A stretch of 20,968 nt of DNA from Abditibacteriaceae bacterium. GTDB lineage: Bacteria > Armatimonadota > Abditibacteriia > Abditibacteriales > Abditibacteriaceae. A program made the position numbers. Position 1 is the first letter of the stretch. Each line of letters opens with the position of its first letter. This document shows positions 1 to 12,000 of this stretch, piece after piece. The DNA lies in contig JANMKN010000318.1 in NCBI GenBank assembly GCA_031372065.1, positions 1 to 20,968 on the forward strand, read 5' to 3'.

Positions 1-3000
1 GCCGTCGGATGGGCCGCCGAGCAGAATTTCGCCGCCGCTTTCTCGCATTTGAGCGGCGCACCACGCGGCTTGCCGCGCATCGAAAAGCGCGCCGATGGAA
101 ACACCATTTTGCAGAGGATTTCCTGTTGTGAGCGCCGCTAATTTTTCTTTTAGGTGGTCGCGCACCTTTTCATAAATCGCCGGATGAACCAGCGCGCCGT
201 TGATGGAAGTGCAAGTTTGACCGTTATAACGCGTGGCGCCCTCGGCCAAAACTTGCGCGGCAGTTTCGGCGTTTTGATTTTCATCCACAAACGTCCACAC
301 ATTGCCCGCTCCATCAGCAATCGCGCTTTTTCCGGCTTCAAAAGTTTGCTTTAATATGTCCGGCGCGTGGCCGCTGCTGCCCATATAATGCAGCAAAAGG
401 GGAGTTTCTGATTCGCACAGCGCCGATACGAATTCTTTCGATTTGCAAAGCACCATGCTAATCGCATTCAGCGGCACATCGGCAATTTTCAAGGCGTGCG
501 CCAATAGCAAAGTCGAGCGAGCCGATTGCAAAGGCGCCCGCAAAACCACACGATTGCCGGTTGCCAAAGCATTAAAAATCGCCGTCAGACCGACTAATAA
601 AAACGCGTTTTGCGGCAGAATAATGGCAATCGTGCCCCACGGCACGCGCACCAAATTGATGCCTCGTTTTTGATTGTTCGCTTCGTAAAAAATCGGCGCA
701 TTTTGCGGGTTTTGCAGGCGCTTAAATTCCGCGCAAAATTGTTGGATGTAAGCGAGGCTGTCTTTGAGCAACTCTTCGCAATCGCGCGCGATAAAACCCG
801 TTTCGCGCTGCATCGCATCCCGCAAAGGTTCGCGCAATCCATGCAAGGCATTGTGCAAGCGCGACGCGAAGTTTTCGACTTCGCCGAAGGTTATTTTGAG
901 TGGTGTTTGCGGTGCAAATAACGCTTGCAATTCTTCATCAGAAAGCAGCTGCGCGCTTTGGATAAGGGAGCCATCGCACGGCGAAATTTGCTGGATCATT
1001 TCGCCGCTGCCGGAAAAATCGCCCCACAGCAGGTTTCCGCTGCGCCAAGGCGCGCCCAAGGAAGGAATTGAATTCATTACTTGAAAAAGGAGGAGAAAAG
1101 ATTTTCAGGAAGACTAACCAGCAGCACGCCGAATAGGATAATAGCTATGCCAAGCCATTGAATTTTCGCCAATCGCTCTTTTAACAAGACCCAAGCCAAT
1201 AAAATGGTGACCACACTAAAAAGCGACGCCAGCGAGGTGACAACTGTGGTGAAGCCCAAACGATCACCATTAATAAAAGCCATCCACGATAAGCAATCCA
1301 CCACAGAAATGCTGCCGGCGAGGGCAAGAATGTTTTTCCACGAAAGGGCCGGGGGCGCACTTTCGGTAGCAACAGCTTCTATAGAGGACGAACGTGAATT
1401 AAGAGAAGCAGCCAAGCCCGCCACGGACAGCATGGTTGCCATGATTTTTAAACCGATCAGTGGCACAACAGGCCCCAGATGAACATCCAAAGGCTCCATC
1501 ATCCAAAACATAACGCCAAAACCGACCGCACAACCGAGGGCTTCGGGCACGCCGCGTAAGCCTTTGTTTGATTCATCTTCGTGGGCACTGGCGCGCGTGG
1601 CTAACACCACTCCAACAAAAAGCAGTGCGGCCCCAACCAGAATATAGGCCGGTAATTTTTCGCGCGTGCCCAGCGATAATAAAGCCGTTACAACAGCAAA
1701 GCTGGAGGCCAAAGGCGATACCAAAGCCAAGGTGCCAATTTCGAAAGCGCGATACGAAAGCACCAAACCTATGACATGACATAGTCCGGCGCCAATCAAC
1801 CAAAACCAAACTGGCACGCTGCCTTCATACTCCTGTAAGCCACTCCATTTGGCGACATTGAGTAGCGGCAATAAAATTATCCACGCCAACAAACTGGCCG
1901 ACTGCGCATAAACCATAGCCCGCATGGTGCCGACACCACGCGCCAGACACGTCACTAAATAATCACCAACACCCCATCCCAGCGCGGCCAAAAGGCCGAA
2001 GATAATTCCCATGACATGAAAACAAAAAAGGAGCGCGAAAAATGCGCCCCTTTTTGTTTTAGCTTGTGCTTTCTTTTTTTACGGCCCGGCCAAACATGAT
2101 GCTGCTGAATCCCTGCTCCGAATTATCAGGCACCTGCCGTGAGCGCACATCAATGTTGACGAACCCATTGCGGCGCAGCCAAGCCAGCAAATCTTCGGCG
2201 TTGACTCCGGCGCCGGGATAGCATCGTTCGCCAACACAATAATAATGATGGCCTTCGCAAGCCGCGAGAATCAAAGTGCCGCCCGGCTTGACCATGCTGG
2301 CGATGTTTTGCATATAAACATCCCATGTTTGCTTGCTGTCAGTAGAAGAATCGGCACAGCAATAAGAAACCACAAGGGGATAAAACTCGCGTTTTTCCGG
2401 CCCCAGTGGATTGCTTTGGGTCACATCACCCGGCCAAATGCCTTTGATGCGTTCGCGGGACAGTTGCTCACGTTCACGAGCTTCTTCATCCGTTGGATTG
2501 GCATTGCCTTCCAACTTCAACATATCTTTGGTGAAAATCAGCCAATCGTGGGCATCAGCATCGTTACTTAGCCATTTTTCGACTTCGGCACGGTTAGCCG
2601 GAAGAAATTCGGCCATGTGGACAGTTTTGGCTTTCAACACCATCGGCATACTGAAAAGCATGACGGGGCCAGTGCCAAATTCCAGAGCGACATCCACAGG
2701 CTCCACTTTCTGCATGGATTCGACGACCCATTCAACGGCATAATGCCCATCGAGCGTGATGTCGGCATAATATTCGTTGATGTAATCCTTGGAATTCCAA
2801 TCACTCCATTCGGCGTATTCAACAGCTTTTTCAACAGTTTGCACGGTTTCGTTTTGCGACACAGTTTTCTCCTTGTCGGGCCGAATTAGGCCGAAGTTTT
2901 TACGCCGCAAGCAAAAATGACGCTGCCATATCCTTGTTCCGAATGATCGGGCACAAGGCGCACGCGCAAATCTATATTGCCGAAGCCATCTTCCTGCAAG

Positions 3001-9000: not shown

Positions 9001-12000
9001 GTTTTCGGCATTTTCGCGATGGATTTTGGGCCGCAGGCTCCAGTTTGGCCTACCCGTCACACGTTTATGTGCGCTCTAACACCAAGAGCGGCGCACAAGC
9101 CAAATTAGCGATTTCGCTGGGCGAGATTTACAACGGTTCCACAAGTTTTGACCAGCCTATCGAAGCCTGGTGGAAGCAACCACTCAAAAGCAACAACTCG
9201 ACCAAAAGTTCGGTGACATTGGGCAAGTTTTATGTTCCCTTTGCCTTGCAGGAATGGGAATACGAGACCAAATGGGGCGCGCTTTACGAAGGCGAATGGA
9301 ATGCCACCACCCTTGGCGCCGCCATGGTTTACAATCGCAACGTTGATCATGCAAACGGTTATGCTCGCGTGGGACACAATTTCGGAGAACGTCTCAATGT
9401 CGGCATCTCACTGGCCACCGGCAGTGGTTTGATGTATGACACGGTGCATGACAAAGCCATCGGCGTTGATCTGACAGGGTCTGCAGGCGATTGGGAAGTG
9501 TTAGCCGAATATATGGGCGCAAGGGGCACTGCCGCACAGCGTTTTCGTTTTGGTTGGGCACGCTTGAATTACAATAAATGGCAGCGCTTCAAGCCTTTTG
9601 CGGCGCGCTACGATTATAAGGACACCACAGGCGCATTCGGCACCTATCGTTCCTATGTGGCCGGGGCCAGCTACGCGCTACGCCCTGATCTTCAAGTTGA
9701 AGGCGGCTACGCTGTCGCTACGGGTAAAAATATCTGGTTTGCTCAAATTCATTGGACACCAGAACGAAAAGTCAAATAATAATTAAAGCGCCTCGAAATG
9801 GCGCCAAAGCGGTCATAAAGTAAATATTTCACAAAAATACCTACAATCATCAGATTTTTAAGTATGTTTGTAATGCTGTAGTAATGCGCGAGGTGTATAT
9901 TAAAAGAGCGTTAGTCCAGACTAACGCCAGAACTAAAGAAGGAATAAACATGAACGAGGAAATTTCGTTCCGCGCGCGGCGTCTGCCAAAAGTGTCTGAC
10001 ACTTATCGCATTTTGATTGTCGAAGACGAAATCGAAGTGTCGCGCCTAATCGGTATGGCATTGGAAAGTCGCGGCTATAAATTCAAGCCGGCTCTTGATG
10101 GCGCGCAGGCATTAGAAGTTTTCAGCGGCTTTGATCCCCATATGGTGCTGCTGGACTTAACGATGCCGGGCATTAGTGGGCAAGAAGTTTACGACGCTAT
10201 TCGCAGCATGAGCGATGTGCCAGTTATGGTGGTGAGCGCTTTAGTCGGCGATAGAGACATTCCGTTACCAGAAGGCGTGGCCGGACAAATGAGCAAGCCC
10301 TTCAGCCCACCCAATCTCGTGCGCCGTGTGCAAGCTGTGTTAGAAGAAACTTACGGGACGTGACCACAAAAATTGATGCTTAAAAAATTGATGCTTATTG
10401 ACGTTTTTAGTCAAATCACAAAAAGCCGATTTTAATTTGTTCGCAGTCAACCGGTTGAGATTACCTGTTTATAAGCCGATGCCTTACCTTGCCGAATCAA
10501 ATCACCAAAATTCCGATTATCAAAATGCGGGTCTTTCGACTCTGTCGGAAATCTCGCCGCAGCCCCCTGTCGAGCGCATTTTCATGGAAAACGAAGAATA
10601 TCAATTTTATGCGCGTTGCCGCCGTGCTATTTTGCTGTTGAATGCTCAATTAGTCAAAGCCGCCGCCGAACGCAGCGAGTTTGCGCCTTTTTTGCTGGAA
10701 GCGATGGGCAATGCCATGTCCGAGTTGCTGGAACACGGCGATGAACGCGATTTATTGCTGTTGGAGCAGTGGCTCGACGAAGAAAACGAGCCGCATAGCG
10801 CCTAAAAGCGAAAAATCCAATACAGCGGGGCAAACGCCCTCTTCCAAACGAACTATTCTGCGATCTCGTCTGGAAGAGGACGTTTGCCCCGCTTTTCTAT
10901 GCCTCTTGAGCGCCACTACAACTCTCGCAAGCCAGCTTACAACGCTCTTAGATCGGCAAACGCCACTCGTATGCCTGTCTACGACTCTCGTAAGCCAACT
11001 TAAGCATCTCGTCTGCCGACCTACAACTTGTGTATGCTATTCTACGAGCCGCGTAAGATAATCTACATGAGGCGTTTGCCGGAAAATGTCACACTTATGC
11101 CGATTTTAAATTGCAAAACGCCTCTGGCGGGGCTAAACATTGAACGGCTCCCGCCACCATTAAAAAGGAAAATCTCTCATGTCTTTTGAAATGCCGCATT
11201 TGCGCCAATTTGACCCCGAAGTCGCCGCTGCCATTGACGCCGAATTAAATCGTCAACGCAACACTTTAGAAATGATCGCCTCGGAAAATTTCGTTTCAGA
11301 AGCCATCATGGAAGCCACCGGCTGCGTGATGACCAACAAGTATGCCGAAGGCTATCCCGGCAAGCGTTATTACGGCGGTTGCGACGAGGTTGACGTTGTG
11401 GAAAACCTCGCTATTGAGCGCGCCAAGCAGCTTTTCGGTGCCGAACACGCCAATGTGCAGCCACATTCGGGTAGTCAGGCCAACGCGGGCGTGTTTTTGG
11501 CGCTTTTGCAGGCGGGCGACACCTTTTTGGGCATGAACTTGGCCGCCGGAGGCCATTTAACGCACGGCCACAAGATGAATTTCAGCGGCAAATTATATAG
11601 TCCGATTTCCTACGGCCTTGACCGCGAAACCGAGCGCATTGATTACAACGAAGTGCGCCGTTTAGCCAAAGAACACTCGCCCAAACTGATTATCGCCGGT
11701 TTTTCGGCTTATCCGCGCGCGATTGAATGGGAAAATTTCCGCGAAATCGCCGATGAAGTCGGCGCGCTTTTCATGGTGGACATGGCGCACGTCGCCGGAC
11801 TTGTCGCGGCGGGCGAATATCCGAATCCCGTGCCACACGCCGATGTTGTCACCACGACCACGCACAAAACACTGCGCGGCCCGCGCGCCGGTTTGATTTT
11901 GTGCAAAAGCGAACACGCCACGGCCATTGACAAAGCGATTATGCCCGGCATTCAAGGCGGCCCGCTGATGCACGTTATCGCCGCCAAAGCTGTGTGTTTG

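Follow-up and report, generated by a model that had tools for sequence, protein, structure and literature searches.

A class I lysyl-tRNA synthetase paralogue without its ATP-site motifs, linked to an aldehyde dehydrogenase and to receptors that differ between bacterial phyla

The window analysed here is the whole of contig JANMKN010000318.1 (1-20,968; 20,968 nucleotides) from an Abditibacteriaceae bacterium (GCA_031372065.1), and all coordinates are contig positions. The open reading frames were all found where a preliminary description of this DNA had placed them. Two arms diverge from an intergenic region (3792..4076), in which an Rfam search returned no matches. The enzyme and export arm, on the minus strand, holds two accessory PNMT/NNMT-type N-methyltransferases with 47% identity to each other (2886..3791, whose top PDB match is PNMT at E 3e-23, and 2059..3036, which matches PF01234 and scores above the cut-off of the NF041360 GntF family), an EamA/DMT small-molecule transporter (1077..2012; PF00892, E 4e-16), and an aldehyde dehydrogenase (ALDH)-family partner (1..1077), truncated at the contig end to 359 of ~475 residues. 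The span 2059..3036 is the longest reading frame, its true start probably lying at ~2862, and the ATG at 3746 is the probable start of the other methyltransferase. The sensor arm, on the plus strand, encodes a membrane receptor with a multi-helix membrane domain followed by GAF-like, GGDEF, and HD-GYP regions (4077..7121), a full-length, 490-residue paralogue of class I lysyl-tRNA synthetase (LysRS1) of the LGDER family, without an ATP site (7276..8748), and an outer-membrane protein with a signal peptide (8745..9779). The start of this last gene overlaps the stop of the LysRS1-like gene (GTGA); its product lies outside named families, with zero matches in a Pfam search, and its sequence suggests a porin.

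PF01921 is the sole Pfam match of the LysRS1-like protein (E 8e-45), which falls under the TIGR00467 (lysS_arch) cut-off (128.9 vs 147.55 bits). As described earlier, the only significant PDB match is the Pyrococcus horikoshii enzyme 1IRX (E 1.3e-25, residues 15-278), with HVGN opposite DERN. We found 282 homologues at E<=1e-3, and all 120 of those listed belong to PF01921; the database name they carry is lysine-tRNA ligase. An AF2 model (pLDDT 94) matches 1IRX along its whole length (Z 31.1 over 439 residues, 5-464 on 3-523), and the second-best structural match is BshC (Z 19.4, 285 residues, 7% identity). The CP zinc finger and helical anticodon domain of the LysRS1 fold are both present in the predicted structure, and the zinc-finger cysteines are kept across our set of 56 loci, comprising the window and 55 GTDB loci (C177/C180 in 55/55, C200/C203 in 54/54). 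The LGDER clade forms a branch apart from canonical class I LysRS (SH-aLRT 99), relative to which it carries a basic insertion of 8-10 residues.

The LGDER motif is covered in 53 of the loci. G25, L31, G32, D33, R35, R38, and E39 are found in 53/53 each, E34 in 52/53, and T27 in 51/53 (Ser in the other two), while position 36 is N, T, S, or L. The invariance first claimed for this motif is nearly complete among these loci but does not extend to wider relatives, where GDGRD and GDDRN variants were observed. The reported replacement of HIGH was borne out: HxGx was seen in 0/23 and 0/11, compared with 60/66 canonical enzymes, the stretch now reads D-E-R-N/T/S/L, and Arg occupies the place of the HIGH Gly. 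Similarly, G-x-D-H is missing (0/23 and 0/11 vs 57/66 canonical), and the KMSKS loop is deleted, as had been noted, with a loose KMSKS-like pattern in 2/23 vs 53/66 canonical enzymes. All three ATP elements are thus absent together.

Most of the lysine pocket still appears to be present. G25, T27, E39, and W220 are kept, Y271 is found in 46/54, and position 242 (the H240 equivalent) is Tyr or His; we take these residues to form the pocket, following the roles ascribed to them in class I LysRS. The 1IRX structure is one without a bound amino acid (PMC7387524). Position 28, mostly Pro in canonical enzymes, is Cys, Thr, or Ser in 53/53, and D33, E34, R35, R75, K80, and C224 form a set of new polar residues that we class as invariant and catalytic-looking. 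The LGDER clade has Cys at the W222 equivalent and has also replaced the canonical anticodon-domain residues F487, Y491, and R502 (1IRX numbering) and the Arg conserved within the DPLR motif; either tRNA binding or lysine specificity may differ as a result.

The gene is patchily distributed, occurring in 20/301 Armatimonadota genomes, and the same 20 carry the ALDH orthologue. A canonical LysRS is co-present in the window's own genome (the previously reported class II enzyme, on contig C227, above the TIGR00499 cut-off) and in 5/5 other carriers checked. Linkage to ALDH had been described but undercounted: at >=250 bits, 44/56 loci have it, and in the remaining 12 the gene is broken or cut (2), has no room (8), or is truly missing (2). 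ALDH is absent from the 7.9 kb downstream at locus L028, and genome G221 retains it unlinked from the LysRS1-like gene. The trees of the two proteins are congruent (13/15 strong splits in common, r 0.91), although co-inheritance of a linked cassette would give congruent trees even without shared chemistry.

The earlier label of LuxC reductase was not upheld, as the ALDH matches Aldedh at E 4e-43 vs 2.5e-5 for LuxC. Acylating ALDHs were considered as nearest kin and rejected, the best PDB matches being vanillin, hydroxybenzaldehyde, and GAPN-type dehydrogenases. By sequence, the protein groups with non-acylating, oxidative ALDHs. The window copy keeps the catalytic Cys (GQTC) and oxyanion Asn (PQN), with the general-base Glu changed to Asp (DGAGN); the Cys is found in 24/24 aligned rows, and the Asn is mostly retained. 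Throughout the LGDER clade the base Glu is Asp and the EEIFGP Glu is Gly or Ser, whereas a newly seen sister group, which also adjoins ALDH, retains both. Given this descent and the base Glu of the sister group, oxidation fits better than reduction.

A receptor beside the LysRS1-like gene, as first described, was observed at 49/56 loci, and its type interchanges between phyla: a 7TM-GGDEF-HD-GYP protein, an amino-acid-type binding protein with a kinase, or a solo 7TM protein. In the window receptor, a membrane domain of an unnamed family with a 7TM-like core precedes the GAF-like region, an intact GGDEF domain (motif at 665, without the RxxD I-site), and an intact HD-GYP domain (HD 816, HHExxDGxGYP 869). 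The structural matches of the membrane domain, to 7TM receptors and rhodopsin-type bundles, are weak (Z 8-10) and serve as a lead only. This domain family occurs in 48/301 genomes at E<=1e-25, commonly without the cassette, so its linkage in Patescibacteria may reflect a generic signalling operon. Both sister-group loci lack a receptor and EamA in the DNA seen. Because sister loci have ALDH without a receptor and the 7TM domain is widespread alone, the obligate core is the LysRS1-like protein and ALDH, rather than the LysRS1-like protein and sensor proposed previously.

Two components were absent from the preliminary description. An SBP_bac_3 lipoprotein adjoining a HAMP kinase was found in 16/56 loci; it retains the Arg and Asp found in amino-acid binders, with a further Glu. 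Porin-like genes, including 8745..9779, are present in 24/56 loci, with the family of the window protein itself in 16/56. EamA occurs in 30/56 loci and methyltransferases in 11/56. A candidate synthase is accordingly linked to an exporter and an extracytoplasmic receptor, the layout of a quorum-sensing system. Finally, 2/46 loci scanned, the present window not among them, have a divergent tRNA-Lys gene just downstream of the cassette, at distances of 54 and 254 nt; G707 has the normal CTT and TTT copies as well.

The preliminary observation is confirmed, and its interpretation is supported in part. A non-translational role is supported by the loss of the ATP motifs, by the canonical LysRS that accompanies the gene in all carriers tested, and by the patchy distribution. 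Export of a signal, as had been suggested, gains from the binding lipoprotein and kinase, the porin-like genes, and EamA, and is still only implied by them. Starting from what was observed directly (the fold, which motifs are lost or kept, gene linkage, co-occurrence, and receptor types), we tentatively favour, at not quite an even chance, a Lys-tRNA-dependent lysyl-transfer enzyme that acts with ALDH to yield an exported amine signal. The protein would no longer activate lysine by ATP; it would bind Lys-tRNA-Lys charged by the housekeeping LysRS and hand on the activated lysyl group, probably via Cys/Thr/Ser at 27-28 or Cys224, with the new Asp, Glu, and Arg in the former ATP site assisting. 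The ALDH, presumably of the same pathway, might accept a lysyl thioester and reduce it to lysinal or oxidise an aldehyde, supplying or finishing the acceptor. EamA and the porin-like protein would release the small cationic product, which would be N-methylated in some Armatimonadota. Outside the cell, the lineage-specific receptor (7TM-GGDEF/HD-GYP, binding lipoprotein with HAMP kinase, or solo 7TM with kinase) would detect it and so adjust c-di-GMP or phosphorelay output in a quorum-sensing-like manner. A more specific version, which we think unlikely, is a split lysyl-tRNA oxidoreductase: the paralogue would present Lys-tRNA (with a divergent tRNA-Lys reserved for this step in some genomes) to the ALDH Cys, which takes the lysyl group to lysinal that is cyclised or dimerised into an autoinducer, with methylation in some lineages. 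Run in reverse, it would charge tRNA without ATP, driven by aldehyde oxidation.

Of the alternatives to a lysyl-transfer signal synthase, uptake with catabolism or detoxification is doubtful yet appreciable. Here the receptor, porin, and EamA would detect an amino-acid-like compound outside the cell and bring it in for oxidation by ALDH, while the LysRS1-like protein hydrolyses or transfers lysyl, possibly onto tRNA without ATP. The kinship with oxidative ALDHs suits this, as do porins and binding proteins, typical of import, and sister locus L062, where a Zn-alcohol dehydrogenase and an MBL hydrolase are added. However, neither an ABC permease nor an ATPase was recognised next to the binding protein, the recurring neighbours include no recognised DNA-binding regulator, output runs through c-di-GMP enzymes and kinases, N-methyltransferases suit synthesis, and carriers G184 and G284 have additional receptor copies without the enzymes. 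A non-catalytic sensor in the manner of HisZ and GCN2, binding lysine or uncharged tRNA and allosterically regulating ALDH or a c-di-GMP enzyme, seems rather improbable. A destroyed ATP site with a persisting pocket and tRNA-binding fold would be expected of one, and signalling neighbours are frequent, but the new invariant polar residues look catalytic, the sister group sits among enzymes, and the receptors are unrelated between phyla, take membrane or periplasmic input, and show no evident common cytoplasmic docking partner.

Quite improbable, in our estimate, is a nucleotide-dependent ligase with a rewired, BshC/MshC-like site, or one using a substrate adenylated by another enzyme. In its favour, BshC, the second structural match, binds ADP at a non-canonical site (PMC4360819), and in IleRS2 an altered HIGH can remain functional (PMC10485003). 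A nucleotidyltransferase-like gene lies immediately upstream at both sister loci, yet none recurs in LGDER cassettes, and the joint loss of three ATP elements, with Arg for the HIGH Gly, argues against any such ligase. Lipid or envelope aminoacylation, raised earlier, would have the membrane protein work like MprF as a flippase or transferase and is very improbable: that protein does adjoin the gene in Armatimonadota and Patescibacteria, but its membrane domain is fused to GGDEF/HD-GYP, has only weak 7TM/rhodopsin-type fold matches and no MprF family match in Pfam or NCBIfam, and is swapped for the lipoprotein and kinase in 16 loci. We give the least credence to a divergent yet working housekeeping or stress LysRS, as the database names, Pfam family, and entire fold would imply, given the absent ATP motifs, the canonical LysRS in every carrier tested (at sister locus L062, one lies next door), and the restriction to 20 genomes of the phylum.

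The database label is a misnomer for LGDER genes. If the signal-synthase reading is true, a dedicated aaRS-derived synthase with swappable receptors would operate in several phyla, among them the Patescibacteria, whose members here depend on hosts and have tiny genomes. It would represent new bacterial cell-to-cell signalling chemistry and offer a candidate ligand class for an unnamed, widespread 7TM-like sensor domain; the split oxidoreductase would make a signal of cell density depend directly on the pool of charged tRNA in Armatimonadota, Patescibacteria, Eisenbacteria, Nitrospiria, and Gammaproteobacteria. The enzyme, ALDH, and binding lipoprotein are small and soluble, so the claim is directly testable.

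Compared with class I LysRS (1IRX; PF01921, TIGR00467), the LysRS1-like protein shares the fold, zinc finger, most putative pocket residues, and anticodon-domain fold, but it is accessory, standing next to a canonical LysRS wherever tested. Glutamyl-tRNA reductase HemA would be a chemical precedent for converting an aminoacyl-tRNA to an amino aldehyde via a Cys thioester; the proteins are unrelated, and the cassette would divide tRNA recognition and redox between two of them. Synthase-receptor quorum-sensing circuits such as LuxS/LuxPQ and CqsA/CqsS similarly combine enzyme, exporter, and receptor, with the binding protein and kinase resembling LuxPQ, although no homology to known quorum-sensing synthases was found. 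DPO shows that aaRS chemistry can give an autoinducer, but one requiring ATP and without a dedicated synthase (PMC12930378). BshC has an aaRS-like Rossmann and CP fold and an unresolved mechanism, but carries a coiled coil in place of the anticodon domain and serves thiol biosynthesis. No description of the LGDER family was found in the literature searched; the accessible part of a review of aaRS paralogues names LysU, PoxA, and LysX, with no LysRS1-derived member among them (PMC9437257). SbzA (IleRS-like), a full-length class I paralogue transferring from aminoacyl-tRNA, and AcmF (AlaRS-like) are proposed to shift an amino acid to a small molecule (PMC12945691, in which 'lysyl' and 'Lys-tRNA' do not occur). 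SbzA keeps the IleRS architecture and weak charging and serves antibiotic synthesis, whereas the LysRS1-like protein has no ATP site and has receptors as neighbours. Cyclodipeptide synthases (AlbC, Rv2275) likewise lack both HIGH and KMSKS in a class I Rossmann fold, since their substrate is aminoacyl-tRNA, used via a Ser intermediate (PMC3105412). They too have a hydroxyl or thiol residue ending the first strand, to which T27 and C/T/S28 may correspond as candidate covalent-intermediate positions. The analogy drawn in the preliminary description thus holds for the lost ATP motifs and fails for the anticodon-domain fold: cyclodipeptide synthases are TyrRS/TrpRS-like without a tRNA-binding domain, while the 490-residue LysRS1-like protein matches only PF01921 in Pfam and no cyclodipeptide synthase family, is more than a single Rossmann domain, keeps its own tRNA-binding domain, and has an obligate ALDH partner.

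The protein encoded at 7276-8748 (plus strand, 490 aa) matched PF01921 only in Pfam and scored under the lysS_arch cut-off. Its sole significant relative in the PDB was 1IRX, the LysRS1 of P. horikoshii, whose HVGN was aligned to DERN. The AlphaFold model (mean pLDDT 94, from an alignment of 119 rows) superposes at residues 5-464 on residues 3-523 of the 1IRX chain at full length (Z 31.1, 439 residues), so both the zinc finger and the helical anticodon domain persist. The next-best structural matches were BshC (Z 19.4), followed by CysRS/GluRS.

Residues were compared across 66 canonical LysRS1 representatives, 23 proteins of the LGDER family, named for its motif, and 11 from a sister group that likewise consists of ATP-less LysRS1 paralogues. 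HxGx was present in 60/66 canonical proteins, while no LGDER (0/23) or sister-group (0/11) protein carried it, and GxDH showed the same pattern (57/66, 0/23, and 0/11, respectively). The KMSKS loop is deleted, with a loose pattern matched in 53 of the 66 canonical proteins, 2 of the 23 LGDER proteins, and 1 of the 11 sister-group proteins. The preliminary description had named HIGH and KMSKS as lost ATP motifs; both are absent, and the G-x-D-H element, which binds ribose, is a third loss. Retained in the LGDER family are G25, T27, E39, D64, D67, K217, W220, R/K227, W228, E236, and, mostly, Y271; from the LysRS1 literature, E39, W220, position 242, and Y271 presumably line the lysine pocket. 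The 1IRX structure is without a bound amino acid (PMC7387524). The canonical invariant W222 is Cys in both the LGDER and sister groups. The DPLR Arg is altered as well, and so, within the LGDER clade, are the equivalents of anticodon-domain F487, Y491, and R502. Newly acquired features comprise D33-E34-R35, a C/T/S at position 28 (53/53), and a basic insertion carrying R75 and K80. Net charge fails to distinguish the LGDER family (median -1.6 per 100 residues) from canonical LysRS1 (-0.8).

In a quick IQ-TREE tree, a single branch (SH-aLRT 99) had every one of the 34 canonical rows on one side and the 32 ATP-less ones on the other; the LGDER clade was recovered with SH-aLRT 99, and the sister group was not resolved as one clade. 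Of 301 Armatimonadota genomes sampled in a single draw, 20 carry an LGDER gene at >570 bits, and 5 further genomes had weak matches (<=117 bits). Viral contigs searched with two queries yielded relatives of neither, and a plasmid search returned 3 weak, partial matches only. The sister group was not found in the 401 Patescibacteria genomes searched, where 5 other matches were canonical LysRS1. The window's own genome has a class II LysRS exceeding the family cut-off, as had been reported, and a second class I copy was looked for there and not found. A separate canonical LysRS was observed in 5/5 other carriers tested, class I in three and class II in two, one of the two class II matches scoring just below the cut-off.

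Re-checking the ORFs of the window bore out the positions reported previously. On the minus strand lie the aldehyde-dehydrogenase-family gene (ALDH; 1-1077, cut by the contig end), an EamA transporter (1077-2012), and two PNMT-type methyltransferases (2059-3791). The plus strand carries a 1014-aa membrane-GGDEF-HD-GYP protein (4077-7121), the LysRS1-like gene, and a 344-aa porin-like gene (8745-9779), whose start overlaps the LysRS1-like stop. A stand-alone response regulator and a small ORF of no known function follow at 9884-10805, an arrangement otherwise seen in only one locus (L001). An Rfam scan of the window and 7 loci found no riboswitch, and the core genes match no defence family in PADLOC. 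Both methyltransferases score above threshold for NCBIfam NF041360, the GntF-type N-methyltransferase of guanitoxin synthesis; because no other guanitoxin-pathway genes were recognised among the window proteins scanned, this match probably reflects shared amine N-methylation. A phosphonate pathway, for which there were several sub-threshold family matches, was considered and not adopted.

Three layouts were observed across 56 loci (the window and 55 GTDB contigs). In layout A (Armatimonadota), ALDH, EamA, and methyltransferases are divergent from the membrane sensor-GGDEF-HD-GYP, LysRS1-like, and porin-like genes. Layout B (Eisenbacteria, Krumholzibacteria, Nitrospiria, and Gammaproteobacteria) runs porin-like, LysRS1-like, SBP_bac_3 lipoprotein, ALDH, and HAMP histidine kinase, followed either by a second kinase or by a response-regulator GGDEF-EAL protein, and often by EamA. 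Layout C (Patescibacteria) comprises LysRS1-like, ALDH, EamA, a solo 266-aa homologue 25-27% identical to the sensor domain, a 92-aa protein, and a kinase. The 92-aa protein, whose gene separates the kinase gene from that of the solo 7TM homologue (L045:14580-14858, likewise L046-L049), has no Pfam family. A receptor was present in 49/56 loci (28 type A, 2 of these cut, 16 B, and 5 C) and ALDH, at >=250 bits, in 44/56; the 12 ALDH misses comprise 2 broken or cut genes, 8 loci without contig room, and 2 (L007 and L028) without a nearby ALDH. In L028, the LGDER gene (781-2259) is followed by apparent nitric-oxide-reductase genes, with no ALDH downstream and the upstream side cut by the contig end. 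EamA, porin-like, and methyltransferase genes were found in 30, 24, and 11 of the 56 loci, respectively, and 19 metagenome loci reproduce layouts A and B to the extent of their contigs. Upstream of the cassette in four Eisenbacteria loci (L038, L039, L044, and L055), an asparagine-synthase-type amidotransferase, an outer-membrane efflux protein, an AcrB pump, and DUF4412 recur, which may be plain synteny.

The ALDH orthologue occurs in exactly the 20/301 Armatimonadota genomes that carry the LGDER gene. A sensor orthologue at >410 bits was found in 19 of those 20, with a partial match in the twentieth, and never above 284 bits in the other genomes. In one genome (G221), the cassette is split between contigs C74 and C2, LysRS1-like and porin versus ALDH, EamA, and membrane sensor; both halves are retained, the LysRS1-like gene being surrounded by unrelated genes. 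Trees of the two enzymes from 36 loci have 18/33 splits in common (r 0.91), including 13/15 strongly supported splits, with two strong conflicts. Since related genomes do not count independently and the queries were themselves drawn from cassettes, co-occurrence and tree agreement show long co-inheritance, not binding. The two readable sister-group loci, on archaeal-looking contigs (L062:809-6323 and L063:9091-12780), have a nucleotidyltransferase-like gene with weak PDC-S09 matches in PADLOC upstream of the paralogue (motif GITTAYxxxD/EN.LRE), and ALDH directly downstream; L062 additionally holds a Zn-alcohol dehydrogenase, an MBL hydrolase, and an adjoining canonical LysRS1. Given the co-occurrence, and given that both loci have ALDH and no receptor in view, the obligate unit is LysRS1-like plus ALDH. 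Second receptor copies without nearby enzyme genes, orphan receptors, were found at G184:C1:3251209 and G284:C301:38275; both genomes carry the cassette as well.

The ALDH had been described as a 'LuxC' reductase, an assignment we do not retain, as a single-sequence search placed it nearest to non-acylating dehydrogenases. That search was used because the top three matches of an alignment-based search were artefacts of 1/24 rows, an unrelated succinylglutamate-semialdehyde-dehydrogenase-like protein (L034:6896-8362). The catalytic Cys is retained; the LGDER clade has Asp in place of the general-base Glu and Gly/Ser in place of the EEIFGP Glu, and the sister-group ALDH retains both Glu. Weakened hydrolysis would suit acyl transfer, with the direction of reaction unreadable from sequence. 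The SBP_bac_3 lipoprotein is 58-87% identical across phyla and retains the amino-acid-binder Arg and Asp, plus an extra Glu; its best family, lysine/arginine/ornithine binders, falls under cut-off, and none of the neighbouring genes was recognised as a permease. In the 4077-7121 protein, the membrane domain matches no Pfam family; it is similar to unnamed actinobacterial clusters and, less strongly, to MASE3/4 and HisKA_7TM. Structural matches to the model of this domain were 7TM receptor and rhodopsin bundles (Z 8-10), a lead only, and Foldseek gave no match at E<=0.001. The GGDEF and HD-GYP motifs are intact. Weaker relatives of the membrane domain occur in 48/301 Armatimonadota genomes, so the domain by itself is unspecific to the cassette.

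ARAGORN made 7 tRNA calls across 46 loci, two of them tRNA-Lys genes found 54 and 254 nt past the porin-like gene, on its strand. One is a divergent tRNA-Lys(TTT) that has C33 and a mismatched T-stem (L011:12728-12799); the other is a divergent tRNA-Lys(CTT) whose D-loop is missing GG and whose T-loop is altered (L012:12929-13001). The L012 genome (G707) has ordinary CTT and TTT tRNA-Lys elsewhere, the CTT copy being 73% identical to the cassette copy. A pattern search of the incomplete L011 genome found no second copy. ARAGORN found no cassette tRNA-Lys in the window, relaxed settings (-ps80) gave noise only, and an nhmmer search seeded with both cassette tRNAs turned up no additional copies in other loci. 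The two cassette genes lend modest support to Lys-tRNA as the substrate. A third, atypical tRNA-Lys(TTT) lies distant from the cassette in the window's own genome (C272:5911-5984).

Our leading reading, to which we give slightly less than an even chance, is that the housekeeping enzyme would supply Lys-tRNA to the paralogue, which would pass on the lysyl group and, with ALDH, yield a small cationic metabolite for export and sensing by the linked receptor. The changes in the anticodon domain, the descent of ALDH from oxidative enzymes, and the sister loci without a receptor count against it. Uptake and catabolism is the less probable alternative we would place next, and a non-catalytic lysine/tRNA sensor is more doubtful than that. 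A ligase with a rewired nucleotide site, for which reports on BshC (PMC4360819) and IleRS2 (PMC10485003) provide a basis, is harder again to favour. Lipid aminoacylation seems very improbable, and we give a working LysRS the least credence of all.

No LysRS1-derived paralogue is named in the accessible parts of two reviews (PMC9437257, PMC12945691), and AARS Online, as far as its accessible text goes, handles LysRS-I as a single family (PMC11580382). Searches of main texts in the open literature found no description of the LGDER family. We regard the protein as an aaRS paralogue outside translation, within an undescribed signalling-type cassette, and a lysyl-tRNA oxidoreductase, if true, would be categorically new. 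The lysyl-transfer reading is supported by analogy with three precedents: CDPSs are without HIGH and KMSKS because their substrate is aa-tRNA (PMC3105412), SbzA moves Ile from Ile-tRNA onto a small molecule (PMC12945691), and aaRS chemistry has a part in making the DPO autoinducer (PMC12930378). Among these known systems, the protein falls outside LysRS1 by its ATP motifs and outside CDPS by its domain content.
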